From Patescibacteria group bacterium (GTDB lineage Bacteria > Patescibacteriota > Doudnabacteria > UBA920), in contig WARV01000024.1 of assembly GCA_013387205.1 (NCBI GenBank), forward strand, positions 11,283 through 75,282: a DNA stretch of 64,000 bases, read 5' to 3'. Numbering within the stretch: position 1 is the stretch's first letter; each line of letters begins with the position of its first letter. This document shows positions 5,193 to 54,990 of the stretch, piece after piece. Under the pieces are notes generated by a model. That model worked only from the letters and a program-made list of their open reading frames with translations. It had not been told where the DNA came from and did no database searches. The translations under genes were made by a program, and so were the position numbers.

Positions 5193-5298
5193 TCTCGCGG
5201 ATTACTACGCCCCAAAGGGGCCACTCTGTGGCGGATCTCACGCTGATATAATCTTTCCGCGTGTTATCTGCGTTGCTATCTGCGTCCGTTCCGCGGTT
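5193..5298. repeat. Dispersed repeat family G (CGCCCCAAAGGGGCCAC..GTGGCGG plus CTGCGTTGCTATCTGCG modules) in the rpsH-rplF spacer
   Basis: Reverse-complement paralogs at 18258-18290 and 19858-19915. The CTGCGTTGCTATC(C/T)GCG module recurs at 50690-50720. Confidence 0.65.
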
Positions 5299-12520: not shown

Positions 12521-12537
12521 AAAAAAATATTGGTTAT

Positions 12538-16476: not shown

Positions 16477-16515
16477 GATGGGAATCTTCTGGGGCAGCCC
16501 CAGAAGATTCCCATC
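16477..16515. repeat. Palindromic hairpin (GATGGGAATCTTCTGGGGC/GCCCCAGAAGATTCCCATC)
   Basis: 19-bp perfect stem with the same GATGGGAATCTT core as 31-68. It lies just downstream of the lipoprotein gene stop. Confidence 0.6.
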
Positions 16516-17636: not shown

Positions 17637-17669
17637 AAAATCGCCGATCTAATTATTTGAGCTATCCTG

Positions 17670-17743
17670 GACCCCGGATCAAGCCCGGGGTGGAAACCAA
17701 GGGTACCATCCCGGAATTTTTCAGGGCTGTGAAAAATATCCGG
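17670..17743. repeat. 74-bp direct repeat, left copy, flanking a GIY-YIG gene
   Basis: CAAGCCCGGGGTGGAAACCAAGGGTACCATCCCGGAATTTTTCAGGGCTGTGAAAAATATCCGGGATCCAGTAC, about 80% identical to 18161-18234. Confidence 0.7.
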
Positions 17744-17792
17744 GATCCAGTACTTATGCTTTAATCCTGAATCAAGTTCAGGACAGGCTCTA

Positions 17793-18086
17793 TTAAATAA
17801 TTTTATTATATAAATCTTCCCAATTAGGATTTATCTTCTCAATTAATTCCAATTTCCATTTTCGATACCATCTTTTTAACTGTTTTTCCCGCTTTATGGC
17901 TTCTTCCCTGTCTTCAAAGACTTCATAATAAACCAATCGATGAACCTGGTATTCTTGAGTAAATCCTTTGACAATGTTGTTTTTATGGGTAAAAACCCTG
18001 TTTACAAGATTATTTGTAAAACCGGTATACAAAGTCCCATTCCTATGACTGGCCAGCATATAAACATAATACACTTTATTATCCAT
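17793..18086 (-). CDS. GIY-YIG nuclease family small protein
   Basis: MDNKVYYVYMLASHRNGTLYTGFTNNLVNRVFTHKNN.. The upstream in-frame extension of the ORF runs into the repeat and is probably not translated. Confidence 0.8.
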   Translation of the reverse strand: MDNKVYYVYMLASHRNGTLYTGFTNNLVNRVFTHKNNIVKGFTQEYQVHRLVYYEVFEDREEAIKREKQLKRWYRKWKLELIEKINPNWEDLYNKII

Positions 18087-18120
18087 TGTTTTTGTATTTG
18101 TTTCTGGCTTTTTCCTGGAC

Positions 18121-18300
18121 CTCGGGTCCCATCCTTCGCATAAAGCTACGGCGGGCACAGCAAGCCCGGGGTGGAAACCGAGGACACCATCCAGGAATTT
18201 CGAGTGTATCGGAGAAATATCCGGGATCCAGTACATATTCGCATTGTATAATTCAGCCACGAAGTGGCCCCTTCGAGGCGTACTTATCGGCGACGTTTCT
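18121..18300. repeat. Composite repeat block (family K hairpin, right 74-bp direct repeat at 18161-18234, family G module)
   Basis: CCTTCGCATAAAGCTACGGCGG, then the CAAGCCCGGGGTGGAAACC..CCGGGATCCAGTAC repeat, then CAGCCACGAAGTGGCCCCTTCGAGGCG. Confidence 0.7.
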
Positions 18301-18305
18301 GCGGT

Positions 18306-19595: not shown

Positions 19596-19744
19596 ATTTC
19601 CTTTTGCCCTAACCGCCCAATCCCGACTTTTTGGGACAAGCGGTTCAGGGCTTTTCTTTTTGCTTGAATTACGTAATCTTTTTGTCATTGCGAGGAGACA
19701 AAGGGCTTTATCTTTGCCGACGAAGCAATCTTTTCATGATTAAG

Positions 19745-19915
19745 ATTGCTTTCACCTTCGCTAAAGCTACGGCGGACAAGTCGGCTGCACTCATAAGACA
19801 TCTAGCCAATTTTAAAGGGCCAACCGTTAGGTTGGCCCTTTCAACTTCAGCGATATATCCGCCACGAAGTGGCCCCTTTGGGGCGTTGCTATCCGCGAGT
19901 AATCCGCGGTACTAC
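19745..19915. repeat. Composite repeat block (family K plus family G modules) downstream of fusA
   Basis: CCTTCGCTAAAGCTACGGCGG ... CCGCCACGAAGTGGCCCCTTTGGGGCGTTGCTATCCGCGAGTAATCCGCGG. Confidence 0.65.
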
Positions 19916-22846: not shown

Positions 22847-22990
22847 AGATTTACTTCGTAAATTTTCTACTAAATACTAATTATTACTAATTGTACTAAA
22901 TATTATCAACCAAGCTTTATTGATATCACTGTTGGTATATAGCTTTAGTATATTTAGTATCCTTTAGTATTTAGTAGAAGTATTAGTAGA
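22847..22990. mobile_element. MITE-like repeat family B, copy 3 (rpsL-rpsG spacer)
   Basis: AGATTTACTTCGTAAATTTTCTACTAAATACTAATTATTACTAATTGTACTAAATA...TTAGTATTTAGTAG. It abuts the S7 start. Confidence 0.75.
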
Positions 22991-28075: not shown

Positions 28076-28187
28076 CATAATCCGAATTACCCAAAAAATA
28101 TCCTAATAACCCGAAAACAAGACCAACCAAAGGTTGGTCTTGTTTATTTAGGGGCATTCGGATGCTAATTCGGGGCATTAGGATTAC
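28076..28187. mobile_element. MITE-like repeat family A, copy 4 (reverse orientation)
   Basis: CATAATCCGAATTACCC...GGGGCATTCGGATGCTAATTCGGGGCATTAGGATTAC. Confidence 0.75.
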
Positions 28188-28189
28188 AT

Positions 28190-30925: not shown

Positions 30926-31192
30926 CTATTTATGCATTCTAATATAGTTTTCCAGTTTATCATTCAACACTTCTCTCCCGTAGCCAGTTTTAAAAAATCT
31001 CTCTGATTTCATTGCATCAGCTTTCTCTAAATAAGCTTCGTAATATATTAATTTGAATGGTGCATGTTTCTTTGTATAACTACCGCCTCTCTTTCTGTTA
31101 TGCTCTGACAAAAATCTTCTTTTTAAATCATCAGTATAACCTTTATACAAAGCCCCATCTTTTAAACTTTCTAACACATAAAAATACCACAT
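30926..31192 (-). CDS. GIY-YIG nuclease family small protein
   Basis: 88 aa, MWYFYVLESLKDGALYKGYTDDLKRRFLSEHN. Confidence 0.85.
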   Translation of the reverse strand: MWYFYVLESLKDGALYKGYTDDLKRRFLSEHNRKRGGSYTKKHAPFKLIYYEAYLEKADAMKSERFFKTGYGREVLNDKLENYIRMHK

Positions 31193-31216
31193 TTTTAATC
31201 CTTTTTAGGATTTCTT

Positions 31217-31290
31217 TGGTCGGGATGCCGAGAATCGAACTCGGACTACATGCACCCCATGCATGCGTACTACCACTATACTACATCCCG
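31217..31290 (-). tRNA. tRNA-Pro (anticodon GGG)
   Basis: Minus strand reads CGGGATG-TA-GTAT-AGTGGTA-GTAC-G-CATGC-ATGGGGT-GCATG-TAGT-CCGAG-TTCGATT-CTCGG-CATCCCG-A-CCA. The C1:G72 pair is typical of bacterial tRNA-Pro. Confidence 0.85.
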
Positions 31291-35269: not shown

Positions 35270-35296
35270 ATAAGATATAGGATTTAAGATTTAAGA

Positions 35297-35650
35297 TTAA
35301 GATTTTTTTCCTGCGGAATTTTTCGTAGAAAACATTATTGCTGTAATTTCATCAGCTTCCTTTAATAATGGTTCAACTAAATTTATTTTCATCAATTTTG
35401 AATCAATTATCATTTCCAACCAAAAACAACTTTCATCTGATTCTTCAACCACTATTCCGATTTTCGCAACGAATTCCTGTTTTGATCTTGATCTGCAAGC
35501 AGCGCGATAATTAACCGCTACTGCAGTCCCAGATCTCAGTAATTGATTTCCTATTACCCTACCTGCATCATTTCTTGGTAAAGCTTGGGTTAACTTAATA
35601 ATCCTAAGAGCGAATTGTTTCGTCCTATTTTTTAGATCTTGTTTATCCAT
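35297..35650 (-). CDS. Four-helix-bundle protein (TIGR02436 / 23S rRNA intervening-sequence protein family)
   Basis: 117 aa, ..QLLRSGTAVAVNYRAA..SKQEFVAKIGIVVEESDESCFWLEMI. Confidence 0.8.
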   Translation of the reverse strand: MDKQDLKNRTKQFALRIIKLTQALPRNDAGRVIGNQLLRSGTAVAVNYRAACRSRSKQEFVAKIGIVVEESDESCFWLEMIIDSKLMKINLVEPLLKEADEITAIMFSTKNSAGKKS

Positions 35651-37045: not shown

Positions 37046-37465
37046 TTAGAATTTAATTTCAAACTCCTCGTTATTATCTAAATCAACATACCTAATCAAT
37101 TTTGGCAAAACTTTAAAATAACAGTTTCCGGGTATTTTGGAATATTTTTCAAAACTCGGTTTTTTCTTTATGTGAACGCTCACGTATTTTTCCCTTTCCT
37201 GATCAAAAACTTCTTTAGCGGCACCTTCGTATTGGATAGTTTTACTGTCATTTCCGCCTACTACAAAAGAAATACTTGGATTGTTTTGCAGGTTTTTATA
37301 TTTTCTGGTGCTATTAAAACATCCGAATACCAGTTCCAAATCTTCAGTCTCCCCAAAACCCACCAGCGCACTTTCCGGCAAATTATCTAATGCTACAGTG
37401 GATAGCACTCCAAGGGTATATCTCTTAAATACTGCTAGTATCTTGCTTTTTTGTTGCGGTTCCAT
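37046..37465 (-). CDS. Pyridoxamine 5'-phosphate oxidase-like (FMN-binding split barrel) family protein
   Basis: 139 aa. The pattern resembles general-stress-protein-26 / PNPOx-like proteins. Confidence 0.55.
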   Translation of the reverse strand: MEPQQKSKILAVFKRYTLGVLSTVALDNLPESALVGFGETEDLELVFGCFNSTRKYKNLQNNPSISFVVGGNDSKTIQYEGAAKEVFDQEREKYVSVHIKKKPSFEKYSKIPGNCYFKVLPKLIRYVDLDNNEEFEIKF

Positions 37466-37497
37466 ATCTTACATCTTATATCCTAAATCTTAACTCT

Positions 37498-38646: not shown

Positions 38647-38865
38647 AGATTAAATGACAAAATTGACAAAATTTAAATAATTAACATAAATGACGCTTGG
38701 CGTCATCCTGAGCGAATGCAGCTGAGCGAAGGATCTCTTGAGCAACAAGAGAAGATTCCTCGGCTGCACTCGGAATGACAACTTCATATAAAATAAGGTT
38801 TGTCATTTTTGTCATTTATGTCATTCTCGTCGTTTTTGTCATTTGGATTATTTTTGTTTCCATAT
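38647..38865. mobile_element. Composite palindromic element: TGACAAA(A) 9-bp direct-repeat arrays flanking a GTCATCCTGAGCGAATGC...GCACTCGGAATGAC inverted-repeat core
   Basis: The core at about 38690-38790 is paralogous to in-frame insertions at 41181-41325 (leuS) and 49920-50070 (M24 peptidase). The flanks share TTTTTGTCA units with family C. Confidence 0.7.
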
Positions 38866-38901: not shown

Positions 38902-41900
38902 TCAAATTACCAGGTTAATGAGTTTGTTTGGCACATAAATTACGCGTTTTATTTCACTTGTGCCGACTGCTTTTTTTACCTGCTCTACCACCAACGCCTC
39001 TGCCTTGACTTCGTCCTGGCTGCTATCCCGCTTAATGGACAGCTTAGCTTTAACTTTTCCGTTGACCTGTACAACAACATCAACAGTCTGGTCTATCACC
39101 AAAGCAGGATTATATTTTGGCCATTCGTGCTCTTGCAAAGATTTTTTATTGCCGAATAAAGAATACAGTTCTTCGCAAAAATGCGGGGCAAACGGGTACA
39201 TTAAAGCCAAAAAAGTTTTTAAAGAATCTAAAGTTATAAAGTCCTGCTTTATTTCATTATGGAATTCCATAAAGCTGGAAACAGCGGTGTTAAACCTCAT
39301 ATTTTCCAAATCTTCCGTAACCTTTTTAATTAGCTTATGCAAAGCTTTTTCTACTTTTTCCGTATCTTTAACTCCCTGATTATTTTTCGCATGAGGAGAA
39401 CTAATAACTTCATTCGCCCAAACCCAAACCCTGTCTAAAAACCTTCTCACGCCCAAAATCCCCTTATCGTTCCATGATACGGTCATTTCGTGCGGCCCCA
39501 AAAAAGGCTCGTACATCCTTAGAGTATCAGCTCCGAACTTTTTAACCACTTCGTTGGGATTAACCACATTTCCGCGGCTTTTAGACATCTTCTCGCCGTC
39601 CGCGGCTAAAATGATTCCATGAGGCTTTCTTAATACATAAGGTTCTTTGGTAGTAACCAACCCCTGGTCGTATAAGAACAGATTCCAAAAACGGGAGTAC
39701 AGCAAATGCAAAGTCGTATGTTCCATTCCTCCAAAGTAAACATCCACCGGGATCCAATACTTCTGCTTCTTTTTGTCAGAAAAAACTTTTTTATCTTTAG
39801 GGTCAATATACCTTAACCAATACCAAGAAGATCCTGCCCATTGCGGCATAGTATTGGTCTCGCGCTTGGCCGGCCCTTTGCATTTTGGACATTTTACATT
39901 TACCCAAGTCTCAATTGCGGCCAAAGGAGACTCCCCTGTCCCAGTCGGTTCGTAATTCTCAACCTCCGGCAATTTAACCGGCAAATCTTTTTCCGGCACC
40001 GCAACGATGCCGCACTTTTCGCAGTGAATTATAGGAATTGGCTCGCCCCAATATCTTTGCCTGCTAAAAACCCAATCTCGCAGCTTGTACTGCACGGTTA
40101 ATTTTCCGAACTCTTTTGCCATTTTTTCAATCGCTTGTTCTGAACCTAATCCGGAAAATTTTCCGGAGTTTATAAGCGTACCGTATTCCACGGAAGCCTT
40201 AGCTAATACCGGGGATGCAATGGCGCTGTCGATTATTTCATCCATTAATTCCGGAAGTTCTTTTAATCCCGACGATGTACCAAAATGGCCCTTGTTTTTC
40301 AAGACAACTGTATTCGCTTGCATATCTCTTTCGTATAAATCCTTTACCGACAAAGGTATATGTTCGTCGTTATCAGAAAACAAAGCAGTCGTTCCGGCTA
40401 CTAAATCCCGGATTTTTTCCCAATCCAAAGAAGCCTGCGAAACTTTCTGGATAGCTTCTGCTGGAGAATCGGCATGGTTGTCGCGATACCATTCCCAATC
40501 CATATCCGGATGGGTTGGTGCAACTAAAAATAAATGCCTAATCTTTTTGTTGAATTTCATCAGAAACTGCAAAGCGGTAGGCGCTCCCAAACTATACCCT
40601 ATAACAAGGGAGTTCTCATTTATCTCATCTTTATACTTTTCCAAAACCTTCAGTCTTTTATTTAAATCCGGGGTTCCCTGGTCATTCATATCAGGAGATA
40701 TCACTTTATATCCCAAGGCAGATAATTTTTCAGAAAGCCATGGAAACCAATTATTTTTGCCGTTACCGTTAGTCCCATGCAGCAACAAGACCGTACCGAC
40801 ATATTGCGGACGGACCACCTGGGTTATGGGCAAATTAAATTTTTGGGCAAACTCGAAATCGCGCTCGTCGTGTGCCGGCACAGCCATAATCGCGCCCGTG
40901 CCATAACCCCACAAAACGTAATCCGCAACCCATACCGGAATTTCTTCCTTCGTCGCGGGGTTAATTGCTTTTATACCTTTTAGTTCAACGCCGGTCTTTT
41001 CTTTTTCCAAAGACGTCCTTTGTGTTTCCGTTTCGCTCTTTACATCCTCGATATACTTTCTGACTTCCCCATAATTCTTAATTCTTGATTCTAAATTCTG
41101 CACCAACGGATGTTCAGGCGCCACAACCATATAAGTCGCGCCAAAAATAGTATCCGGGCGGGTAGTAAAGACTTTAATCTTCATGGCGTCATCCTGAGTC
41201 CCGGATGCATCTGAGGGACGAAGGATCTCTTTATTTGACTGAGGGTGAGATTCTTCGCTCGGCTGCACTCGCTCAGAATGACGCCGAGAGGATAATATCA
41301 CTTCGCCTTTTGCACTCCTCACAATGACACCGAAATCTATTTCCGCGCCAACGCTTTTTCCAATCCAGTTTTCCTGCTGCAGCTTAACAGCCTCCGGCCA
41401 CTCCGGCAGATTTTTTAACCCTTCCAAAAGCTTTTCGGCGTAAGCCGTAATTTTCAAATACCACTGCCTTAACTCTTTTTTTACAACAACAGTTCCGCAC
41501 CTGTCGCATTTGCCGTCAATCACTTCTTCGTTAGCCAGCCCGGTTTTATCTTTAGGGCACCAGTTTATAAGCCCGGTAGCTTCGTAAGCCAAGCCTGCTT
41601 CAAAAAACTTCAAAAAGATCCACTGCGTCCATTTATAATAGTCAGGATCCGTGGTGTTTACTTCCCTGCTCCAATCGAAACTAGTTCCCCAGGATTCAAG
41701 CTGGGCTTTGGCATTTTTGATATTTTTTGCCGTGGAAATGCTCGGATGGATATGGTGCTTTATTGCAAAATTTTCCGCAGGCAAACCAAAAGCATCCCAA
41801 CCGATTGGGTATAATACTTCATGGCCTTTCATGCGTAAGAAGCGGCTGTAAATATCCCCGGCAATATAAGGGCGCAAGTGTCCCATGTGCAAACCTTCGC

Positions 41901-42033
41901 CGGAAGGGTAAGGAAATTCCACCAGCACATATTTTTTCGGATTTTTTGAAAAATCTTTAGCGACAAAAGTTTTTTTCTGCTGCCAATATTTCTGCCACTT
42001 CTTTTCAATTTGTAATGGGTTATATTTCTTCAT
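38902..42033 (-). CDS. leuS: Leucine--tRNA ligase carrying two in-frame insertions (an RPE-like palindromic insert and an RBBP9/YdeN-like alpha/beta-hydrolase domain)
   Basis: HMGH and KMSKS class I motifs, a CP1 editing domain, and the anticodon-binding C-terminus. The ORF is 1062 aa from a TTG at 42090; I placed the start at the ATG at 42033 (1043 aa). Confidence 0.95.
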   Translation of the reverse strand: MKKYNPLQIEKKWQKYWQQKKTFVAKDFSKNPKKYVLVEFPYPSGEGLHMGHLRPYIAGDIYSRFLRMKGHEVLYPIGWDAFGLPAENFAIKHHIHPSISTAKNIKNAKAQLESWGTSFDWSREVNTTDPDYYKWTQWIFLKFFEAGLAYEATGLINWCPKDKTGLANEEVIDGKCDRCGTVVVKKELRQWYLKITAYAEKLLEGLKNLPEWPEAVKLQQENWIGKSVGAEIDFGVIVRSAKGEVILSSRRHSERVQPSEESHPQSNKEILRPSDASGTQDDAMKIKVFTTRPDTIFGATYMVVAPEHPLVQNLESRIKNYGEVRKYIEDVKSETETQRTSLEKEKTGVELKGIKAINPATKEEIPVWVADYVLWGYGTGAIMAVPAHDERDFEFAQKFNLPITQVVRPQYVGTVLLLHGTNGNGKNNWFPWLSEKLSALGYKVISPDMNDQGTPDLNKRLKVLEKYKDEINENSLVIGYSLGAPTALQFLMKFNKKIRHLFLVAPTHPDMDWEWYRDNHADSPAEAIQKVSQASLDWEKIRDLVAGTTALFSDNDEHIPLSVKDLYERDMQANTVVLKNKGHFGTSSGLKELPELMDEIIDSAIASPVLAKASVEYGTLINSGKFSGLGSEQAIEKMAKEFGKLTVQYKLRDWVFSRQRYWGEPIPIIHCEKCGIVAVPEKDLPVKLPEVENYEPTGTGESPLAAIETWVNVKCPKCKGPAKRETNTMPQWAGSSWYWLRYIDPKDKKVFSDKKKQKYWIPVDVYFGGMEHTTLHLLYSRFWNLFLYDQGLVTTKEPYVLRKPHGIILAADGEKMSKSRGNVVNPNEVVKKFGADTLRMYEPFLGPHEMTVSWNDKGILGVRRFLDRVWVWANEVISSPHAKNNQGVKDTEKVEKALHKLIKKVTEDLENMRFNTAVSSFMEFHNEIKQDFITLDSLKTFLALMYPFAPHFCEELYSLFGNKKSLQEHEWPKYNPALVIDQTVDVVVQVNGKVKAKLSIKRDSSQDEVKAEALVVEQVKKAVGTSEIKRVIYVPNKLINLVI
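40216..40809 (-). other. Alpha/beta-hydrolase (Ser_hydrolase/RBBP9/YdeN-like) domain inserted in the LeuRS leucyl-specific domain
   Basis: Residues near 428-625: VLLLHGTNGNGKNNW (HG oxyanion), VIGYSLGA (GxSxG nucleophile elbow), FSDNDEHIP (acid), KGHF (His). Flanked by canonical LeuRS ..FNLPITQVV and GTLINSGKFSGL. Confidence 0.75.
41181..41325. mobile_element. RPE-like palindromic element inserted in frame in leuS
   Basis: GGCGTCATCCTGAGTCCCGGATGCATCTGAGGGACGAAGGATCTC ... GATTCTTCGCTCGGCTGCACTCGCTCAGAATGACGCC. It encodes the low-complexity segment IVRSAKGEVILSSRRHSERVQPSEESHPQSNKEILRPSDASGTQDDA, between the conserved IDFGV and KIKVFTTRPDT. Confidence 0.75.
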
Positions 42034-42086
42034 AATAGTATATTCATTATTTCCTCTCCCTTTAGGGAGAGGGTGGGGTGAGGGGG

Positions 42087-42452
42087 TCAATTTTTCAAAA
42101 ATTGATAAATTCTATTTAAAACCCCTTCTAAATTTTCATCTAAGTCATTATCCCAAAATCTTAAAACAATATATCCTTGATCTCTCAAAAGTTTATCTCT
42201 TAATGAATCGGTAATTTTTTTCTGAAGATGATGACTACCATCTAATTCAATGATTAATCTTTTTTTGATACAAATAAAATCAACTATAAAATTTCCAATC
42301 GGATACTGCCTTCTAAATTTAAAATCTTTAAACCTTCTATGTCGCAGAAGATACCATAATTTTTGTTCCCAAGGAGTTTGATTTATCCTTAACTTCCTGG
42401 CTGCTTGTATCAAATTTTGGTTTTCAATCCCCCTCATCCGTCCTCCGGCCAC
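42087..42452 (-). CDS. DUF559 (endonuclease-domain, Vsr-like fold) protein
   Basis: 121 aa, ..NQTPWEQKLWYLLRHRR..FKFRRQYPIGNFIVDFIC....IIELDGSHH....D..RD..L...GY.VLRFWDNDL. Flanked by CTCCCTttaGGGAGAG (42055-42070) and CTCCCTcaGGGAGAAGG (42455-42475) hairpins. Confidence 0.8.
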   Translation of the reverse strand: MAGGRMRGIENQNLIQAARKLRINQTPWEQKLWYLLRHRRFKDFKFRRQYPIGNFIVDFICIKKRLIIELDGSHHLQKKITDSLRDKLLRDQGYIVLRFWDNDLDENLEGVLNRIYQFLKN

Positions 42453-42460: not shown

Positions 42461-43348
42461 TCAGGGAGAAGGAAATAAGAAAAGTTTTTTTGCATTCTCT
42501 GTCGTCATCTTCTCAACCTCGGCAAGTTCCAAACCAAGGACTTCCGCCACCCTTTGAGCCACGTACTTTACGTACGCTGGCTCATTTCTTTTGCCCCGGT
42601 TCGGAACCGGAGCCAGATAAGGGCAATCGGTCTCCAAAACAAACCTGTCCAGCGGCGCCTGTTTGACCAGTTTTTCCATGTTTCCAGTCTTATCAAATGT
42701 AATTATACCATTAAAGCTTATGTAGCCGCCAAGCTTATAAAATTCCTGCATCAGCTCCGGGCTTCCGGTATAACTATGAAGTACAAACCTGATATCAGAT
42801 TTAAGATTTAAGATTTCTGATTTAAGAATTTCTAAAATATCAATTGCGGCATCATCTGTACCCTTTGATGAACGGGAGTGAATAATCAACGTTTTATCTA
42901 ATTCTTTTGCCAAATTAATCTGGGCGATAAAAGCTTGTTTTTGCTTTTCTTTGATAATATCCAAACTTTCCAGATGGTCCCCATCCTGATGGGGACCATC
43001 TGGAACAGGTAACCGATAATAATCCAAACCGCATTCCCCTATTCCCACAACTTTGGGATTCTCCGCCAGACTTCGATACATCGATGTATCGAAGTGCTCT
43101 TCGCGGGTTAAAAAATGGGTTTCTTCTTCATCGACATGCTGCGAATGGGTGTGCTCGGGATGCAATCCCACAGCCGCGTACACTCCTTTCTCGAACATGT
43201 TTGCTAATTCCACTGCCTGCCTGGATGTGTCAATTTGCGAGCCAATGTTAATAACCCAAACGCCTTGGTCCATTGAGCGCTTGAGCACTTCCTTGGCATC
43301 ATCCTTAAACCCGCGAAAATTTACGTGAGCATGGGTGTCGATGAGCAT
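42461..43348 (-). CDS. tatD: TatD-family metal-dependent hydrolase (DNase) with a short microsatellite-derived insertion
   Basis: 295 aa, IDTHAHVN..; the metG-tatD linkage is conserved. (AGATTTAAG)n at 42795-42830 encodes LKSEILNLKSDIRF. Confidence 0.85.
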   Translation of the reverse strand: MLIDTHAHVNFRGFKDDAKEVLKRSMDQGVWVINIGSQIDTSRQAVELANMFEKGVYAAVGLHPEHTHSQHVDEEETHFLTREEHFDTSMYRSLAENPKVVGIGECGLDYYRLPVPDGPHQDGDHLESLDIIKEKQKQAFIAQINLAKELDKTLIIHSRSSKGTDDAAIDILEILKSEILNLKSDIRFVLHSYTGSPELMQEFYKLGGYISFNGIITFDKTGNMEKLVKQAPLDRFVLETDCPYLAPVPNRGKRNEPAYVKYVAQRVAEVLGLELAEVEKMTTENAKKLFLFPSP

Positions 43349-43365
43349 GAATTATGAAGTATGAA

Positions 43366-44808
43366 TTAAGAATTAAGAATGCGGGGAAACAGTGGTTCAG
43401 CTTTGATAATGGGATATTTTTTCAGATGATCTAATATTTTTAGACTGGATTCTGGCAAAAACGGTTCTAACTGTTCGGCCACAAAATAAATTCTTGCTAT
43501 GAGATGGTGGGAAACGTCGCTGAATTCCGCCAAATCAGATTTTGCCAAATCCCATAATTTCTTTTCATCAACAATTTTATTCGCAATAATAACCTGCTCC
43601 CAAATTTTCGATAACGCCGTATGAAAACGGAAATTTGCTATTTCTGCTTCAATCTCTTTTTTTTCCTTGCTAAAATCGCAATAAAAAATATTTTTCTGGC
43701 TTTCGTATTTTCCACCGAGATATTTCTCTGCCAATGTGGTGACGCGGCTAACTAAGTTACCCAAACCATTTGCCAGTTCGCCCTCATAGCGAGTTTTTAA
43801 TTTCTCTTCGCTTACATCCCCGTCATCGCCGAACGCCACTTCGCGCAAAAGCAAATAACGCACGGCGTCCGCGCCGTACTTAGCCACCCAATCGTTCGGG
43901 TCAATTACATTACCAATGCTTTTGGACATCTTTTCTCCGCCAACAGTCAAATAACCATGCACAACAACCTCTTTAGGCAAAGGCAGTCCGGCTGCAAGCA
44001 AAATTGCCGGCCAAATTATGCAATGAAATTTGGAAATATCCTTGCCGATAATATGGCAGTTTGCCGGCCACCAATCTTTTCCATTTTCATCTTTGGCGCC
44101 GGTAACGTAATTAATAAGCGCATCCACCCATACATACACGGTCTGCTCTTTATCCCACGGCAGAGGTATTCCCCATTTCACGTTCGGCCTCGATATGGCA
44201 ATATCGTTAAAACCTTGCTCAAGCAAACTTAAAATTTCATTTTTGCGCTCAACCGGCCAAATTTTCAATTCATCTTTTTCAATTGATTCCTTAATTTTTC
44301 CGGTAAATTCTGACACTTTCAAAAACCAGTTTTTTTCCGTAACAAGTTCCGGCTTGGTTTTATGGATTGGACACAAGCCGTCTATTAAATCTTTTTCCGG
44401 ATAAAACGTCTCGCAAGATACGCAATACAAACCGCTATATTCTCCTTCATAAACATAACCATTGTCCTTTATCTTTATCAGTAAATCTTCAACGGTCTTA
44501 ATATGGTCAGCATCAGTTGTACGGATAAGCCTGTCAGGCTGGATATTAAGCTGGTCCCAGGCAAAACTAAACTGGGCGGCTGTCTGGTCAGTAAACTCTT
44601 TTAAAGCCACACCGGATGCCGCAGCAGCTTTTTCGATTTTCGAGCCATGCTCGTCTGTCCCGGTTAAGAATCGCACTCTATCTCGCCCGTACTTAGCCGA
44701 ATAAAACCTGGCCAACACGTCGGCTGCAACTTTCTCATATGCATGGCCAATGTGCGGCTTGGCGTTAATGTAATCTATTGCGGTTGTAATAAAGAATTTT
44801 TCAGTCAT
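43366..44808 (-). CDS. metG: Methionine--tRNA ligase (short form, no C-terminal tRNA-binding domain)
   Basis: 480 aa with an HIGH-type motif (INAKPHIGHAYEKV) and KMSKS. Confidence 0.95.
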   Translation of the reverse strand: MTEKFFITTAIDYINAKPHIGHAYEKVAADVLARFYSAKYGRDRVRFLTGTDEHGSKIEKAAAASGVALKEFTDQTAAQFSFAWDQLNIQPDRLIRTTDADHIKTVEDLLIKIKDNGYVYEGEYSGLYCVSCETFYPEKDLIDGLCPIHKTKPELVTEKNWFLKVSEFTGKIKESIEKDELKIWPVERKNEILSLLEQGFNDIAISRPNVKWGIPLPWDKEQTVYVWVDALINYVTGAKDENGKDWWPANCHIIGKDISKFHCIIWPAILLAAGLPLPKEVVVHGYLTVGGEKMSKSIGNVIDPNDWVAKYGADAVRYLLLREVAFGDDGDVSEEKLKTRYEGELANGLGNLVSRVTTLAEKYLGGKYESQKNIFYCDFSKEKKEIEAEIANFRFHTALSKIWEQVIIANKIVDEKKLWDLAKSDLAEFSDVSHHLIARIYFVAEQLEPFLPESSLKILDHLKKYPIIKAEPLFPRILNS

Positions 44809-47915: not shown

Positions 47916-48039
47916 ATTAACGAATTAGCTTGACTAATCAACTAATGTAACGAATATTACCAATGATAACTAATGTTATCTAAGTAAGGATTAGTTGCCA
48001 TTAGTTATTATTAGTATGGATTCGTAGATTAGTTAATTA
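47916..48039. mobile_element. MITE-like repeat family H, copy 3
   Basis: It fills the NUDIX-M16 spacer exactly, from start codon to stop codon. Confidence 0.7.
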
Positions 48040-49308
48040 TCACACCTTCAATATCTTTTTGAACATCTTCTCGTTTTTGTACGGGCCGATAATTGCCAGG
48101 CTTAATTTTTCATCCTTAAAAACGTCATTAGCGACTTTTTGGATATCTTTGGCCGTAATTTTATCCAATTTATCAAAAGCCATGGTGGGCGTTTCAATCT
48201 TTTTATGGAAAGCCGCGCGCTCCAAAAACCAATCCAACCTGACCTGATTATCTTCCAATGCTAACGTGGTTTTTCCTTTTATGTATTCTTTTGCCTTAAT
48301 AAGCTCTCTCTCTTCAACCGGAACTTCCTTAATTCTCTTAAGTTCGCTTAAAATAACCTGCAACGCTTCGGCTGCTTTATCCACCTGCACTCCGCTGGTA
48401 ATGGTAAAAGATCCTGTGTCCTGATAGCTGCCGGGCATGGCCCTGACATAATAAGCCAATCCTCTTTTTTCCCTGACTTCAGTAAACAGCCTGCTGGACA
48501 TGCCTCCGCCTAAGACAGATCCTAAAACCAGCAAAGCGGTGTTGCGCGGGTCGCCGTAAGCATAGCTTTTGAAACCCAATGCCATGTGCGCCTGTTCGGT
48601 TTCCTTGAAAGAAATTTTCAGACGCGCTGAGCTTTGCTTATCTAAGGCCTTTCCCCACCCGTCGTGATTTTTTTTGGGATGGTTTGACCAGTATTTTTTC
48701 ACCAGGCCGTCAAATTGTTTTTGGTTGTATTTTCCGGAAATCCCCAATATCATATTAGGCGCCTGGTAATGCCTGGAAACGTAATCCATGAACATTTCTT
48801 TAGTAAACTTGGTGACTGTCTCCTTGCTTCCGGCAATATCCCGCCCAAGGGCGTCTTTTGGCCACATGGTCGATTCCAAAACGTTCTCAATCTCGGCAAT
48901 AGGCGTATCTTTATACATGTTTATTTCTTCCACAATCACGCCTTTCTCCCTTTCCAGTTCGTCCCGATCAAGCAGCGGGCACTGGACCATATCTGTAAGC
49001 ACTTCAAAAATCAAAGGCAAATATTTGCTGGCTGCCTTGATGTAATATTGCGTATGCTCCTTGCCGGTGTTGGCGTTCATTTCCCCGCCTATGGAATCTA
49101 TAAGTTCGGAAATAGCCAAAGCCGACGGATATTTTTTCGTTCCTTTAAATAAAAAATGTTCCAAAAAATGCGAGATGCCGTTTTCTTTGGCAGATTCGCA
49201 CCTTGAGCCTGTTCTGACAAAAAAATCCACCACCACGCTTTCCGCGTCGCTCCCCGGCACTTCCATAATTGTCAATCCATTTGGTAATTTACTCTTTTTG
49301 TAATTCAT
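48040..49308 (-). CDS. M16-family (insulinase/pitrilysin-like) zinc peptidase
   Basis: 422 aa with the HFLEH inverted zinc motif. Confidence 0.85.
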   Translation of the reverse strand: MNYKKSKLPNGLTIMEVPGSDAESVVVDFFVRTGSRCESAKENGISHFLEHFLFKGTKKYPSALAISELIDSIGGEMNANTGKEHTQYYIKAASKYLPLIFEVLTDMVQCPLLDRDELEREKGVIVEEINMYKDTPIAEIENVLESTMWPKDALGRDIAGSKETVTKFTKEMFMDYVSRHYQAPNMILGISGKYNQKQFDGLVKKYWSNHPKKNHDGWGKALDKQSSARLKISFKETEQAHMALGFKSYAYGDPRNTALLVLGSVLGGGMSSRLFTEVREKRGLAYYVRAMPGSYQDTGSFTITSGVQVDKAAEALQVILSELKRIKEVPVEERELIKAKEYIKGKTTLALEDNQVRLDWFLERAAFHKKIETPTMAFDKLDKITAKDIQKVANDVFKDEKLSLAIIGPYKNEKMFKKILKV

Positions 49309-49630
49309 TGTTTTGATTAATAAACCTTCCTTCTTTTAATAACTCAGACTGTAACTGGATACTGTCAACAAATTCATTAAAATTTTTCTCGTAGTATCCG
49401 TCTTCAGTCATCTGTTTTATTTGTTTTATTTGGCTAAGCAGTTCATTGGCTACTAAAAAATGCGTTTCACTGGCGCCAGGTTTTAATTTATGGCCGGTCG
49501 GATTAATTTCCGCAAATTTTTCCCTGGTTGCCGTTAAATCTCGTTCAAGCTTATCCAGCCTAGATTGCAACTCCTGCTTTTCAGCAAAAGGCTCTTCTGG
49601 CTTTAAACCCTTTACTTCTAAATTACTCAT
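49289..49630 (-). CDS. Hypothetical coiled-coil protein
   Basis: 113 aa. Confidence 0.4.
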   Translation of the reverse strand: MSNLEVKGLKPEEPFAEKQELQSRLDKLERDLTATREKFAEINPTGHKLKPGASETHFLVANELLSQIKQIKQMTEDGYYEKNFNEFVDSIQLQSELLKEGRFINQNNELQKE

Positions 49631-50844
49631 ATAATGTTGTCTTTTAATTTTGTTGAAACATTTATAAATTTTTTAATCTGGCCCTTTTCTAAATATACCA
49701 AATCTTCAATCCTTATGCCACCGATTTTCGGCAGGTATACGCCGGGTTCTACGCTGAACACCATGCCATTTTTTATTATATCTTTTGATTTAGGGGATAA
49801 ATTCGGCAGCTCGTGGATTTCAAGGCCCGTGCCATGCCCGAGGCTATGTATGAAATATTTATCAAGATTTTTCTCGGCTAAAATCGCCACGGCTTTTTGG
49901 TAAACCTGGTCTCCTGTCACCCCCTTGTCATTGCGAGCCACGAGTGCAGCCGAGTGGCGCGGCAATCTTTCCCTTGTAATAAGATTGCTTCGCTCGGCCG
50001 TTCGGCTTTGCTCAGGCCGACTCTGAGTAGAATCGAATGGGTCGAATGCACTTGCTCGCAATGACATAAAGTCTATGCATCCCCAATACGCCTTCTCCAC
50101 CTGGTTATAAGCCGCTTCCAATTTTGCCGGAGCTTTTTTTAAAAACACTGTCCTGGTAAAATCGCTGCAATAATTTTTATACTTAAAGCCGAAGTCCAAA
50201 ATTACGGATTCTCCCGGTTTTAGCTTTTTCTTAGACGGCACATGATGCGGAATGGCAGCATTAGGCCCGCTTGCCACAATCGGCGGAAAGCTTATGTCTT
50301 GCGCCCCAAACTTTAGGCCTGTTTGTTTGATAAACTCCGCCAATTCTATCTCTGTAGGGACGAGAAGCGGCCACCCGCTACGCAAGCGGCGCTTAACCTG
50401 AAAAAAAACCTGCTCCACGATTTTCATCGATTTCCCAATCAAGGATATTTCTTCCGGTTCTTTAATCATCCTCTGAAAATCAACCGGGTCGTGTTTAATA
50501 TTCACCTTAATTCTTAAATCTTTGCTCTTTACTCTTATATATCTGACTTCCGCGTAAGTGAACTCCCCAAATACGTCCAAAACTTGCCTGGGATGGATAT
50601 ATGTTCCTATATTTTTCAAAAAATCCGAATGGATCCCCTCTATCCTTTCCAATCCATCCCCCAAGAAGATAACTGATGGGTTTCCGCGCTGATCTGCGTT
50701 GCTATCCGCGTGTTTCCGCGGCTTCACTAATAAATACCCATGCATAAAAGAACGACCTGTTAAATATAACAGGTTTTCTTTTTTCTTTATCAGCAACGGC
50801 TGCTTTAAAGAAAATTGGAGTTGTTTTATCCTGCTTCTGTCCAT
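49627..50844 (-). CDS. pepP: M24-family Xaa-Pro aminopeptidase carrying an in-frame RPE-like insertion
   Basis: 405 aa with the C-terminal pita-bread motifs HSLGHGTGLEIHE and VEPGVY. Confidence 0.85.
   Translation of the reverse strand: MDRSRIKQLQFSLKQPLLIKKKENLLYLTGRSFMHGYLLVKPRKHADSNADQRGNPSVIFLGDGLERIEGIHSDFLKNIGTYIHPRQVLDVFGEFTYAEVRYIRVKSKDLRIKVNIKHDPVDFQRMIKEPEEISLIGKSMKIVEQVFFQVKRRLRSGWPLLVPTEIELAEFIKQTGLKFGAQDISFPPIVASGPNAAIPHHVPSKKKLKPGESVILDFGFKYKNYCSDFTRTVFLKKAPAKLEAAYNQVEKAYWGCIDFMSLRASAFDPFDSTQSRPEQSRTAERSNLITRERLPRHSAALVARNDKGVTGDQVYQKAVAILAEKNLDKYFIHSLGHGTGLEIHELPNLSPKSKDIIKNGMVFSVEPGVYLPKIGGIRIEDLVYLEKGQIKKFINVSTKLKDNII
49920..50070. mobile_element. RPE-like palindromic element inserted in frame in the M24 peptidase gene
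   Basis: GTCATTGCGAGCCACGAGTGCAGCCGAG ... GGGTCGAATGCACTTGCTCGCAATGAC. It encodes ..SLRASAFDPFDSTQSRPEQSRTAERSNLITRERLPRHSAALVARNDKGV.. Confidence 0.7.
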
Positions 50845-51234
50845 CTATGCTGCGTACTGCTTAAATATTTGCAAAGCTTCTTCAATCCTATTTTTTAAAA
50901 CCATTATATCATCGCCAGCAACACTATCTTCGTTCCTCATTGCAAAATATTTGTCGGATATTTTCCTTAAATCCGCATGGCAAGCATTGACTATGCCTGC
51001 ATGCTGGGGTTTTAGGTTTTTTCCTATATAGAAATAAATGTTCTCAAATTTCGAAACTGCACGTGATACTTCCTCTGCGGTTATCGCATTATCCTCTAAG
51101 AGCAAAAATTCATCCAATTTTTCTTTGCCGCTTGCGAACTCTGTTTCATGACGCAAGGCATCCTTTGCTATTTGGCCCTGTGTTAAATTTTGATCCTCGT
51201 ACTCCAAGACCCCTTCGGGACTCATATTACTCAT
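50845..51234 (-). CDS. Hypothetical protein
   Basis: About 129 aa from the ATG at 51234, just downstream of the glyQS stop. Confidence 0.4.
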   Translation of the reverse strand: MSNMSPEGVLEYEDQNLTQGQIAKDALRHETEFASGKEKLDEFLLLEDNAITAEEVSRAVSKFENIYFYIGKNLKPQHAGIVNACHADLRKISDKYFAMRNEDSVAGDDIMVLKNRIEEALQIFKQYAA

Positions 51235-51238
51235 ATGT

Positions 51239-52561
51239 TTATAAGCTGTTAATGTTCTTTTGCAAATAAGATTGCAAATCATCAATTTTCACCCTGGGCT
51301 GCTCTTTGGTGTCGCGGCTACGCACGGTTACGCTTCCGTCTTCCAAAGTCTGGAAATCCACGGTAATGCCAAATGGCGTGCCTATTTCGTCCTGGCTATA
51401 ATAACGTTTGCCCACGTTCCCCCTGTCATCCCAGGCCGTGGAAAAGTGCTCTTTAAGCTGGTCGTAAATTTCGCGCGCTTTGGCAACCAATTCCGGCTTG
51501 TTCTTTAACAGCGGAAACACCGCAACTTTATACGGAGCCAAACGCGGCGGCAGAGCCAAATACACGCGATCCTCTTCTTCGCGGTAATGCTCGCACAAAA
51601 CCGCCAAAACCGTGCGGTCAACTCCCCAGGTCGGCTCTATTACGTGCGGCAAATATTTCTCGGAAGTGTAAGGGTCAGTATATCTCAAGTCCTGGCCGGA
51701 TTTTTCCTGATGGTTCTTCAAGTCAAAATCCGTGCGGTAAGCCAAGCCGTAAAGTTCGCTCACGCCGAACGGAAAATGGTACTCAAAATCTATGGTACGC
51801 TTGCTGTAATGCGCCAATTCGTCCTTAGGCACTTCCAGTTCATGGACATGAGTCAAATCTATCCCCAAATCCTTATTGATCCAGGACAGCATGTTCTCGC
51901 GCCACATCTCAAAATACTTATTCCATTCCGCGTCCTCTTTCGGGACCGGGATGAAATATTCAATTTCCATCTGTTCGAATTCGCGCGTGCGGAAAATAAA
52001 ATTTCCCGGGGTGATTTCATTGCGGAAAGCCTTCCCAATTTGCCCAATGCCGAAAGGTACGGTCTTGCGCGAAGTATCCAAAACATTCTTAAAATCCACG
52101 AACATGGCTTGCGCGGTCTCCGGCCTGAAATACGCAATGTTCGCCTGCTCTTCCGCCGGACCGATAAAAGTCTTGAACATCAAATTAAACATCTTGGCTT
52201 CGGTAAATCCGGCGGACTTATCGCAAGAAGCACAAGGTTTGGTTGTATCAATCTGGTCAGCGCGAAAACGGGTGTGGCAGTTCTTGCATTCCACCAAAGG
52301 ATCGCTGAAATTTTTCAAATGGCCGGATGCTTCCCAAACTGCCGGCTTCATAATTAAAGCCGCATCAATGCCGACCATGTCATCCCTGCCTTGCACAAAT
52401 CGCTTCCACCACAACTGCTTAATGTTGTTTTTCAATTCCACTCCGACAGGACCGTAATCCCAAGAATTAGCAAACCCGCCATAAATCTCGCTGCCCGGGA
52501 AAATAAACCCTCTTCTTTTGCACAAAGACACTATTTTATCCATCAAATCGTTGTTATTCAT
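51239..52561 (-). CDS. glyQS: Glycine--tRNA ligase (alpha2 dimeric class II type)
   Basis: 440 aa, FPGSEIYGGFANSWDYGPVG.. Confidence 0.95.
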   Translation of the reverse strand: MNNNDLMDKIVSLCKRRGFIFPGSEIYGGFANSWDYGPVGVELKNNIKQLWWKRFVQGRDDMVGIDAALIMKPAVWEASGHLKNFSDPLVECKNCHTRFRADQIDTTKPCASCDKSAGFTEAKMFNLMFKTFIGPAEEQANIAYFRPETAQAMFVDFKNVLDTSRKTVPFGIGQIGKAFRNEITPGNFIFRTREFEQMEIEYFIPVPKEDAEWNKYFEMWRENMLSWINKDLGIDLTHVHELEVPKDELAHYSKRTIDFEYHFPFGVSELYGLAYRTDFDLKNHQEKSGQDLRYTDPYTSEKYLPHVIEPTWGVDRTVLAVLCEHYREEEDRVYLALPPRLAPYKVAVFPLLKNKPELVAKAREIYDQLKEHFSTAWDDRGNVGKRYYSQDEIGTPFGITVDFQTLEDGSVTVRSRDTKEQPRVKIDDLQSYLQKNINSL

Positions 52562-53513: not shown

Positions 53514-54827
53514 CTATTGATTAGTATAATCTTTATAGTTTTTCACCATCTCATCAAAATACTCGTAAGTTATTGCGTTGCGGATTTTATCCATTAAGTT
53601 CAAATAAAACCTCAAATTGTGCATGCTGGCCAAACGGATAGCTAAGGGTTCGCCTACCGCAAACAAGTGGCGGAGATAAGCTTTGGTATGGTTCAAGCAA
53701 AGGTAGCAGTTGCAGGTGTTGTCCACCGGCGTAAAGTCTTCTTTGTATTTCTCCAGGCGGATATCGATTGTTTGATAACCCTCGACGGTAGAAGCATCTT
53801 GTAGCGGGCGGATACTATCCGCCCCTACGGCCGGTTTTTCGATATTCCTTGCCGCAATATACAATCTTCCATGCCTCGCTTCCCTTGTCGGGATAACGCA
53901 ATCAAAAGTGTCACAGCCCCGCGCCACGCCTTGGACGATATCAAACGGCGTTCCTACCCCGAGCAAATGCTTAGGCGCAGTAACCGGCAGAAAAGGCACG
54001 GCGTATTCTACGGCTTTCATCATTTCCTCGTGCGGTTCGCCCACGGCCACGCCGCCAATCGCAAACCCTTCAAAGCCAAAACCGGCCATGTCCAAAGCGG
54101 ACTGCTTGCGCAAATCTTCAAAGCTTGCGCCCTGGACAATCCCCCACAACTTTTGGCCGGGGTTGACCGGATCGCCGCTTTGCGTAATTCTTTGGTGTTC
54201 TTTAATGGCGCGCTCAGCCCATCTTTTAGTCAGTTCAATGGATTCCTTGCTGCGTTTGTGCTCAAACGGATAACCCGGGAAGTCATCTAATATCAAAGCA
54301 ATGTCGCTGCCTAAATTGGCCTGAATGTCCACGGATTTTTCCGGAGACAACACTTCCTGCTTGCCGTCCAAATCGAACTGGAACAACACCCCGGCTTCCA
54401 TCACCTTGCGGAACTTGGCCAAAGAAAAAACCTGGAAGCCGCCGCTGTCCGTAAAAATCGGTCCCTTCCAGTTCATGAATTTATGCAAGCCTCCTGCTTT
54501 ATAAATAAGCCCGTCGCCCGGCCTCTGCCACAAATGGTAAGTGTTGGCCAAAACCATGTCCGCGCCCCAAAACTTTAACTCTTCAGATGTGACAGATTTC
54601 ACTGTGCCGCGGGTGCCGATTGGTAAAAACGCCGGGGTCTTTACATCCCCGTGCGCGGTATGGATTACGCCTGTGCGAGCTTTGGATGACTTGCCCCGCA
54701 CTAATTCTTGATGTCCCTTTGATGGCTTTTCTTTTTCACCACGCTTAAAATCATCTTCATCAGACTGTTGATAATCATGAAAATTAGTGCGGGGTGAATC
54801 AGGTTTTAAAATATCGAAATAAGACAT
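53514..54827 (-). CDS. tgt: Queuine tRNA-ribosyltransferase (tRNA-guanine transglycosylase) with about 50-aa N-terminal extension
   Basis: 437 aa with zinc site CxCxxC..H (CNCYLCLNHTKAYLRH). Confidence 0.9.
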   Translation of the reverse strand: MSYFDILKPDSPRTNFHDYQQSDEDDFKRGEKEKPSKGHQELVRGKSSKARTGVIHTAHGDVKTPAFLPIGTRGTVKSVTSEELKFWGADMVLANTYHLWQRPGDGLIYKAGGLHKFMNWKGPIFTDSGGFQVFSLAKFRKVMEAGVLFQFDLDGKQEVLSPEKSVDIQANLGSDIALILDDFPGYPFEHKRSKESIELTKRWAERAIKEHQRITQSGDPVNPGQKLWGIVQGASFEDLRKQSALDMAGFGFEGFAIGGVAVGEPHEEMMKAVEYAVPFLPVTAPKHLLGVGTPFDIVQGVARGCDTFDCVIPTREARHGRLYIAARNIEKPAVGADSIRPLQDASTVEGYQTIDIRLEKYKEDFTPVDNTCNCYLCLNHTKAYLRHLFAVGEPLAIRLASMHNLRFYLNLMDKIRNAITYEYFDEMVKNYKDYTNQ

Positions 54828-54829: not shown

Positions 54830-54990
54830 ATGCAGTGGCGTCATTCCGCTTGTCCTCCGTAGCTTTAGCGAAGGTGGAAGCGAGCGAGGAATCTCTTTGT
54901 TTAAAATATCCAGATCCTTCACTGTGTTCAGAGCCTGCCCCGGACTTGCTGTGCCCGCCGTAGCTTTATGCGAAGGCTGGGATCCGGGGA
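54830..54990. repeat. Composite repeat block (family K hairpins in reverse orientation plus a partial 74-bp repeat)
   Basis: CCTCCGTAGCTTTAGCGAAGGTGG ... GCCCGCCGTAGCTTTATGCGAAGGCTGGGATCCGGGGATGAAGCCCGTG. Confidence 0.65.

Follow-up and report, generated by a model that had tools for sequence, protein, structure and literature searches.

The stretch of contig WARV01000024.1 analysed here (64 kb, 'the window' below) belongs to a genome of the Patescibacteria (candidate phyla radiation, CPR), near Candidatus Doudnabacteria, and the top matches of its LeuS and M24-peptidase proteins are Doudnabacteria or 'Patescibacteria group' proteins. By their Pfam domains, its approximately 60 open reading frames (ORFs) run from an S10/spc ribosomal-protein operon, EF-Tu, EF-G, S7 and S12, through ParB, BacA and SHMT, to leuS, a DUF559 gene and tatD, then to MetRS, an AI-2E transporter, an AP endonuclease, a NUDIX protein and an M16 peptidase, and finally to an M24/PepP-like peptidase (pepP below), HisRS, TGT and PNPase. 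Palindromic DNA elements stand in frame within leuS, pepP, tatD and tgt, and related elements lie between genes (Table 1). A first-pass annotation, made from the letters alone, had placed one such element in leuS, one in pepP and one downstream of leuS; each was found within ~5 nt of the position given, as a strong imperfect hairpin. Its core claim, that palindromic elements sit in frame inside essential genes, is right and generalises beyond these three loci: to its list we add the 50674-50724 repeat in pepP, two palindromes in tatD, two elements in tgt and the intergenic elements at 19684-19790 and 54837-54945.

Table 1. Host genes, inserted elements and related repeats, with their positions in the window.
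Feature	Position (nt)	Strand	Measurements and remarks
leuS	38902..42033	minus	
tatD	42461..43348	minus	
M24/PepP-like peptidase gene	49627..50844	minus	
Full palindromic element (GGCGTCATYCTGAG ... CTCAGRATGACGCC), in frame in leuS, encodes RRHSERVQPSEESHPQSNKEILRPSDASGTQDDA	41185..41285	minus	hairpin z -4.0 to -4.1; nhmmer E 8e-18
Half element, 43 nt (arm GTCATTGTGAGGAGTGC...), in frame in leuS, encodes IVRSAKGEVILSS	41286..41328	minus	terminal motif at 41318-41328
Intergenic copy of leuS-type family, downstream of leuS	38699..38782	.	RNA MFE -40.9 kcal/mol, z -4.85; nhmmer E 3.8e-12
Intergenic element upstream of tgt, starts GGCGTCATTCCGC, distant relative of leuS-type family	54837..54945	.	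nhmmer E 5.4e-4
Intergenic composite element, starts TTTGTCATTGCGAGG, has 'GCTAAAGCTACGGCGGACAAG' module	19684..19790	.	
Sister-family composite (TGTCATTGCGAG ... CTCGCAATGACA) that contains two inner hairpins, in frame in pepP	49926..50066	minus	RNA MFE -74.9 kcal/mol, z -7.1; DNA z -6.7
Second in-frame insertion in pepP, loop GYLLVKP[..]VVFLGDG (loop 1), CCGCGGAA...CGCGGAAA repeat	50674..50724	minus	
Intergenic paralogue of the pepP loop-1 insert	5240..5295	.	~88% DNA identity (our count from the alignment)
Perfect palindrome, 17-18-bp stem, in frame in tatD (PDGPHQDGDHLE)	42968..43005	minus	DNA fold z -7.4
Perfect 26-nt palindrome, in frame in tatD (FDTSMYRS)	43070..43095	minus	region ~13 residues longer than in solved structures
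7-nt microsatellite (AGATTTA, ~4.4 copies), in frame in tatD (EILKSEILNLKSD)	42789..42833	minus	
Intergenic 7-nt microsatellite (TAAGATT, 5.1 copies)	35271..35305	.	
Further intergenic copies of the 7-nt microsatellite	37464-37497; 43349-43380		
In-frame hairpin segment, N-terminal tgt (residues 12-46)	54690..54794	minus	RNA z -4.6; DNA z -3.4
28-nt palindrome, in frame in tgt (within NIEKPAVGADSIRPL)	53801..53828	minus	z -2.9

Bulged elements were overlooked by gapless and BLAST-based inverted-repeat scans, and a palindrome alignment score under-called long hairpins, so that folding z-scores against shuffled sequences were used in its place. The main elements, 84-141 nt long, reach z-scores of -4.0 to -7.1 as RNA and -4.1 to -6.7 as DNA. 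The element terminus GTCATYSYGAG occurs eight times in the window against 0.12 expected, and TGCAGCYGAG, a core common to the elements, is likewise enriched.

The leuS insert consists of a full element of 101 nt and an adjoining half element, which together fold with a minimum free energy (MFE) of -54.9 kcal/mol as RNA (z -4.0, 138-nt fold). Their net effect is a gain of 43 codons (129 nt), the WIGKS and TTRPDT motifs being 67 aa apart in the window LeuS as against 24 aa in insert-free relatives. In comparison with T. thermophilus LeuRS, residues 237-282 stand in place of three residues, at the point where the chain passes from the catalytic core into the CP1 editing domain. This loop is empty in some relatives, filled by other palindrome peptides in others (VIPAQAGIQ...PGMT; RHSEGVQPTEES), and in others again accommodates a whole alpha/beta-hydrolase domain, which suggests that the site is tolerant. 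A family profile (nhmmer) built from 77 independent metagenomic copies, with the window sequence excluded, matches the full leuS element (E 8e-18) and the intergenic element downstream of the gene (E 3.8e-12), but matches the pepP composite only marginally (E 0.004); on these statistics the first two form one family, and the pepP copy falls in a sister family with TGTCATTGCGAG termini. The link between intergenic and leuS copies proposed in the first-pass annotation thus survives profile statistics, whereas its single family does not extend to pepP. Both conditions that the annotation had named as refuting its claim were put to the test, and neither overturned it. The leuS half element taken alone gives no significant match to the profile (E 5.9).

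In pepP, the composite element is a 141-nt nested hairpin encoding the peptide SLRAS...ALVARNDK. The anchor motifs on either side of it are 76 aa apart as against 31 in insert-free orthologs (+45 codons, 135 nt), and residues 253-306 are without counterpart in PDB 1wn1. As had been claimed, both genic gains are exact multiples of three and keep the frame. An AlphaFold model of the peptidase, based on 107 orthologs, is confident overall (pLDDT 89.6, pTM 0.86), with residues 267-309 as coil and residues 274-304 at pLDDT <50; the inserted peptide is a low-confidence coil. Judged from the structural comparisons, the insert peptide probably occupies a tolerant (surface) position in both PepP and LeuS. 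The second insertion, in loop 1, encodes KPRKHADSNADQRGN, adds 13 residues and is not a strong hairpin (fold z only -1.3); its core GCAGATAGCAACGCAGAT matches the intergenic sequence at 5266-5283, against 0.03 matches expected.

That these extra segments should be native loops specific to the lineage, or else artefacts of assembly or gene calling, is scarcely conceivable. The contig was assembled from a metagenome, and the leuS ORF is called from an upstream TTG through another repeat; yet insert-free orthologs are common, other orthologs have different occupants at the same site, the inserts are paralogous to intergenic copies at the DNA level, and dozens of independent assemblies show the same phenomenon. 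Window 49081-51317, with both pepP inserts, is also present in an independent Logan assembly (SRR19769811), with 3 mismatches in 2237 nt, so that the pepP inserts are not an assembly artefact.

A scan of metagenomes with the pattern GGCGTCATYCTGAG-N45-75-CTCAGRATGACGCC returned 94 stretches with 100 distinct copies of the leuS-type family (73-103 nt), whose terminal inverted repeat is the 14-nt GGCGTCATYCTGAG. Among 78 oriented and aligned copies, an inner stem (CGAAGAATCTC/GAGATCCTTCG) shows conservation of 90% or more, though it lies outside the search pattern, and two stem imperfections are near-invariant, a T.G in the outer stem and an A.C in the inner stem. That nearly all copies have the same two imperfections points to copying from a common source. 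Between the stems lie variable modules, the left one of which (module A) is self-closing and shows compensatory changes (GC 41, CG 15, UA 7). Target-site duplications are absent from 96 of the 100 copies, and the 2-3 nt seen in the other four equal the chance expectation; the flanking position -1 is C in 61% of copies, and +1 is G in 54%.

Nine of these 100 copies lie in long open frames and 91 are intergenic. Pfam verified the hosts of six genic copies on the metagenomic contigs (MnmA, RecJ, AtpG, RNase HII, MiaA and RsmI), and in relatives PepP loop 1 and TatD also carry the family in frame, with insert peptides very close to that of the window LeuS (e.g. RHSEGVQPTEESQSKNKEILPPAQGRGQDD). Only 1.37 of six frames are open per copy, which means that the elements are not made for coding. 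One length class modulo 3 holds seven of the nine genic copies and 26 of the 91 others (Fisher p 0.005), a bias that looks like the signature of a selection filter on insertions.

Searches of wider collections returned little. The strict family pattern, which is too narrow to give the taxonomic range, matched twice in 185,579 species genomes (one Saccharibacteria, one Ignavibacteria), and no leuS-type copy was present in viral contigs, phage records or plasmid records, which gave no evidence for a phage or plasmid vector. A profile of the insert peptide matched nothing in a set of 5.8 billion proteins, and phmmer with the 46-residue insert, a short and biased query unsuited to such a search, found one match (E 1.8e-4) among 1.84 billion representatives. 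Rfam gave nothing at gathering scores and, at E up to 1, only a meaningless miRNA match; the leuS-type family is not a described RNA family.

Wider comparison of orthologs showed that insertions recur at the same few loops. (P-numbers below denote orthologs in the protein comparisons, L003-L010 the syntenic loci of relatives and L002 an Ignavibacteria locus.) Among the 120 closest peptidase homologues, loop 2, which holds the composite element here and has a baseline of 12 residues, exceeds 18 residues in 79 and has no insert in 41, and loop 1 is expanded in 74 and at baseline in 46. The extra segments of loop 2 belong to unrelated peptide families (SLRG...ARND, ...KRGLGGD, ...EERGRGEV, EG.L.G.P.K..KG). 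In an alignment of 107 peptidase sequences, insertions of at least six residues pile up at two of ~345 core positions, in 55 and 70 sequences respectively, while any other internal site has them in at most six. Turnover of the insert state is fast, as nearest-neighbour PepP pairs with 88-92% protein identity outside the loop differ in it. For example, P0193 has a ~39-nt palindrome (36 nt net) that is missing from P0205, at 90% DNA identity, and P0169 and P0199 (89% DNA identity) have at one site an 85-nt TCATTGCGAG...CTCGCAATGAC element and a different, perfect 30-nt palindrome, respectively. Nested copies also occur, in the window composite and in relatives, and suggest that palindromes tend to enter or replace earlier palindromes.

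This behaviour is not confined to the peptidase; the LeuS loop, with its varied occupants, follows it too. The syntenic loci L003-L010 allowed nine housekeeping genes to be compared. Of their 24 lineage-specific insertions that span 10 or more residues, 21 fold at z <= -2.5 (median -4.9), whereas among 48 controls taken from these genes only seven segments do (median -0.2; Mann-Whitney p 8e-9). Since the insertions fold so much better than shuffles and the controls do not, most of the larger insertions in the conserved proteins under comparison are due to palindromes in this lineage, and it is chiefly from the elements that length differences of 10 or more residues arise in these housekeeping proteins. 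The recurrence at hot-spot loops appears to be new and is the most interesting new aspect of the data.

A hairpin selected in place as an mRNA or DNA structure (a pause site at a domain boundary, an RNase or stability element, a protein-binding site), with its sequence free and its position and fold kept, would likewise put unrelated palindromes into exactly the same loops of orthologs, and the location of the LeuS site at a domain junction and the compensatory changes that keep the closing pair of module A also speak for it. We consider it very unlikely all the same. The hot spots are often insert-free (46 and 41 of the 120 homologues for loops 1 and 2), the families are mostly intergenic, some inserts, such as that in pepP loop 1, form no hairpin, and even at E up to 1 Rfam holds no meaningful match. 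Moreover, at conserved positions either strand shows a single wobble and a single true mismatch, a pattern at odds with selection for a one-strand RNA helix.

The palindromes of tatD and tgt are shorter. Against solved TatD/YcfH structures and the proteins of relatives, the tatD palindrome at 42968-43005 is an insertion of 12-16 residues; its loosely related intergenic counterparts are CCAGAAGATTCCCATC palindromes at 16477-16515 and 28-71, and no exact copy exists in the window or in 105 fetched loci. In tgt, the segment at 54690-54794 is missing from some orthologs, and the Pfam TGT domain begins at residue 49; the palindrome at 53801-53828 falls at a loop that other palindrome families fill in relatives. 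The first-pass annotation was correct that tatD carries in-frame palindromes, but they are those at 42968-43005 and 43070-43095 and not the microsatellite to which it had pointed. The microsatellite does have intergenic and in-frame copies, as described, with a unit of 7 nt (TAAGATT/AGATTTA) in place of the 9 nt given, and it adds only ~3 residues relative to solved TatD structures. Its loop holds a leuS-type element in relatives (L008 and L009, TatD residues 173-214).

Short perfect palindromes of this kind (tatD 42968-43005 and 43070-43095, tgt 53801-53828, and the 30- to 39-nt palindromes in pepP of relatives) might have arisen de novo at fragile sites, either through template switching or through repair primed by a hairpin; the origin of the long tagged elements would then be a separate one. 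Their arms are perfect, they are without the CGTC/TGTC tag of the longer elements, and the first tatD palindrome has no exact copy, all of which would fit. We find this origin rather unlikely, however, as related CCAGAAGATTCCCATC palindromes do occur elsewhere in the window, the peptide pattern EG.L.G.P.K..KG shared by P0159, P0193, P0200 and P0229 suggests families, and neither arm is recognisable as native sequence of the empty P0205 site.

Several known systems resemble these elements. Rickettsia palindromic elements (RPE; Ogata et al. 2000, Science 290:347; 2002, Genome Res 12:808; summary in PMC10969869) are likewise stable hairpins, of ~100-150 nt (here 84-141 nt), with copies between genes and in frame in unrelated housekeeping genes whose ORF is kept (here leuS, pepP, tatD and tgt), with added peptides compatible with the fold, and with a small-genome host dependent on other cells. 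In contrast to RPE, the host here is a member of the Patescibacteria and not Rickettsia, so that the elements are no strict members (the comparison being one of form and tag), a small number of loops is shared by many families, orthologous loops are filled anew time after time, and ~9% of full-length copies are genic, as against approximately half in three coding RPE families.

The tag gives a further connection. The superfamily of CGTC-tagged repetitive extragenic palindromic (REP) sequences, defined by Di Nocera, De Gregorio & Rocco (2013; PMC3733652), has a terminal CGTC or TGTC (variant CCTC), 8-9-bp stems from A-T/T-A pairs, paired inverted arms, no dedicated transposase, and in-frame intragenic copies in several phyla, with tRNA synthetase genes among the hosts; RPE-4 and RPE-6 of R. 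conorii are placed in it, and RPE sequences of R. conorii have the CGTC ending (PMC3733652) that is also seen in the elements here. The leuS element, its intergenic copy and the 100 metagenomic copies begin with GG-CGTC-AT-YCTGAG, while the pepP composite, the 19684 element and the copies of relatives have T-TGTC-ATTGCGAG (T-TGTC-AT-TGCGAG), with CGTC in L003. Directly after the tag come 8-bp stems (ATYCTGAG / CTCAGRAT and ATTGCGAG / CTCGCAAT), the arms are inverted and paired, and tRNA synthetases are among the genes with in-frame copies. The ~60 ORFs of the window yielded no transposase domain. The peptides are alike as well, the published RHSELVSGS (Sulfurovum, CGTC-2) resembling our RHSE... 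peptides and VIPGLDPGIH...GRVKPGHD (S. novella, CGTC-3) our VIPAQAGIQ...PGMT (PMC3733652). Unlike CGTC REPs with their loop of 4-5 nt, however, these elements have tagged arms 45-75 nt apart, and the interval holds variable modules and another conserved stem (CGAAGAATCTC/GAGATCCTTCG); their far end is the complement of the tag, without a CCA tail; and Patescibacteria lie outside the five phyla of PMC3733652.

Long imperfect two-arm hairpins with conserved imperfections, no target-site duplication and a mostly extragenic location are also shared with REPIN elements and their REP-associated tyrosine transposases (RAYT), but the GTAG tag is replaced by CGTC/TGTC, and we saw no RAYT gene in the window and no RAYT association. 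Miniature transposable elements with inverted repeats (MITEs; Coxiella QMITE1/2, ERIC, Correia, Nezha) are similarly small and non-autonomous, with terminal inverted repeats and occasional in-frame fusions to host ORFs, intragenic in-frame copies being on record for QMITE1/2 (PMC5896051); they differ in that 96 of 100 copies here have no target-site duplication. Neither the window nor the fetched loci contained an autonomous insertion sequence with matching ends. Taken together, the tag and the AT that follows it fit the CGTC-REP superfamily, RPE-4 and RPE-6 included, and the Rickettsia analogy drawn in the first-pass annotation is borne out and may be more than an analogy. Its remark that such invasion has rarely been described outside Rickettsia was overstated, given intragenic REPs in several phyla (PMC3733652) and in-frame copies in Coxiella (PMC5896051). 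The elements are thus of a CGTC-tagged REP/RPE-like kind already known and, as far as we found, undescribed in Patescibacteria; our literature search returned no paper linking CPR/Patescibacteria to in-frame palindromes, although such absence is not proof.

On this evidence, it is highly probable that the inserts are non-autonomous palindromic repeats of the CGTC/TGTC-tagged REP/RPE type that populate Doudnabacteria-like Patescibacteria, with a history of insertion, selection for frame and site, translation and re-use of loops. What the sequences show is that the repeat families are real and have both intergenic and genic copies, that inserts are gained, lost and replaced among close relatives, that genic copies at a few tolerant loops keep the frame and are free of stops, and that target-site duplications are absent. 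The process may be pictured in four steps: (i) insertion would occur without target duplication, most likely by way of a single-strand hairpin, of the HUH/RAYT kind, or through another nuclease acting at the conserved tag; (ii) insertions in essential genes would be purged unless they keep the frame, are free of stops and fall at a tolerant surface loop or domain junction, a filter of which part is visible above; (iii) surviving copies would be transcribed and translated into hydrophilic, probably disordered loops (e.g. RHSERVQPSEES...QDDA, SLR...ARND); and (iv) occupied loops would be revisited, with elements nesting in or replacing one another, so that a few loops become hot spots throughout the lineage. 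The elements are most plausibly passengers, whether selfish or neutral.

Some observations weigh against this account. All 100 metagenomic copies differ from one another, with no sign among them of a recent burst or of insertion polymorphism within a population, and Pfam found no transposase, RAYT or IS200-type (Y1_Tnp) gene among the ~60 ORFs of the 64-kb window. To our knowledge, no transposase is known for CGTC-tagged repeats. Two published features of CGTC REPs, the 4-5-nt loop and the CCA tail, are missing, and targeting of sites, rather than tolerance, could underlie the hot spots. Translation into disordered surface loops is inferred from the intact frames in essential genes.

This lineage is, after Rickettsia, a second one of small-genome, host-dependent bacteria with selfish palindromes in essential genes, which agrees with the view that DNA of this sort can survive in coding sequence where purifying selection is weak. 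Repeat insertions, and not adaptive loops, make up a large part of the length differences between CPR orthologs (here 21 of 24 insertions of 10 or more residues). Insertions of this kind will skew alignments and phylogenies as well as protein-family models and structure predictions, and they give rise to spurious peptide motifs such as RHSE..QDDA, SLRG..ARND and VIPAQAGIQ..PGMT. The recurrent loops and the well-defined high-copy family (GGCGTCATYCTGAG...) offer a tractable system for the movement of CGTC-tagged repeats.

LeuS has further peculiarities. Its longest ORF, with a TTG start, reads through a repeat (LTPSPHPLPKGRGNNEYTI, window 42034-42090); the likely true start is MKKYNPLQIEKKW at 42033, and the public protein P0001 (1062 aa) contains the resulting spurious extension. 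After the editing-domain motif, the protein carries a ~190-residue alpha/beta-hydrolase domain (PF06821/PF00561; residues ~409-600, window 39900-40810). Most relatives (P0002-P0120 compared) have a similar domain at another site, the loop that bears the palindrome here, and other LeuS orthologs have NUDIX, methyltransferase, HAD or Ham1 domains, one of them two tandem hydrolase domains. In several of the relatives with a hydrolase domain in that loop (P0008, P0020, P0067, P0109, P0004 and L009, position 21079), palindrome peptides or a REP arm lie exactly at the domain junctions. That palindrome hot spots might serve in Patescibacteria as landing pads by which entire domains get into essential enzymes is a speculation that we rate as quite unlikely; were it true, REP-like elements would drive bacterial domain shuffling inside essential genes.

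Other mechanisms and candidate mobilisers were set aside. The inserts are too short for inteins and without intein motifs, translational bypass is at odds with the absence of in-frame stops, and group I/II introns found no Rfam match. Three small GIY-YIG (COG2827-like) nuclease genes lie in the window, at 942-1199 (plus strand), 17793-18085 (minus) and 30926-31204 (minus); two of them adjoin tRNA genes (765-835, 31220-31290), and that at 17793-18085 is flanked by ~95- to 125-nt palindromic element copies (17655-17765, 18100-18238). An Ignavibacteria homologue (L002, 6219-6620) abuts GTCATYCTGAG arms. A general association of the nuclease with the leuS-type family was rejected, a homologue being present at only one of ~90 element-bearing metagenomic loci. 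Nor were the DUF559 and 23S-rRNA-intervening-sequence-protein genes associated with the element. The former (Vsr-like endonuclease; 42087-42452, minus) stands between tatD and leuS, is in the same place in L008 and is absent from L009 and L010; the latter (four-helix bundle; 35297-35650, minus) stands between SHMT and BacA. Each has the look of a small selfish passenger amid housekeeping genes.

The intergenic elements show some modular structure. GC-rich modules such as ...GCTAAAGCTACGGCGGACAAG... and ...CCACGAAGTGGCCCCTT.GGGGCG... recur across intergenic composites with 82-94% identity (18120-18171 / 54938-54989; 19748-19780 / 54849-54881; 5179-5246 / 18248-18305 / 19847-19914), and this recurrence suggests that elements are put together from interchangeable modules. 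The copy at 38699-38782 sits between inverted arrays of the 9-nt unit TTTGTCATT (38651-38694 / 38799-38859), a 9-mer that occurs eight times against 1.3 expected. Tandem arrays of it are also found at 10043-10089 and 10479-10534, after the S19 and L2 genes, and they contain TGTCAT, the 'tag + AT' of the palindromic elements.

In one relative (L008, 8157-9715), HisRS is called as two ORFs (316 + 215 aa), for which a frame-disrupting insertion or a sequencing error is possible. Finally, ~100-nt AT-rich hairpin repeats of at least two further families separate the genes of the ribosomal-protein operon and their neighbours (557-664, 3469-3568, 7978-8091, 11378-11489, 12534-12624, 22865-22979, 28078-28189 and 47931-48042), a spacing unusual for the normally compact S10/spc operon.

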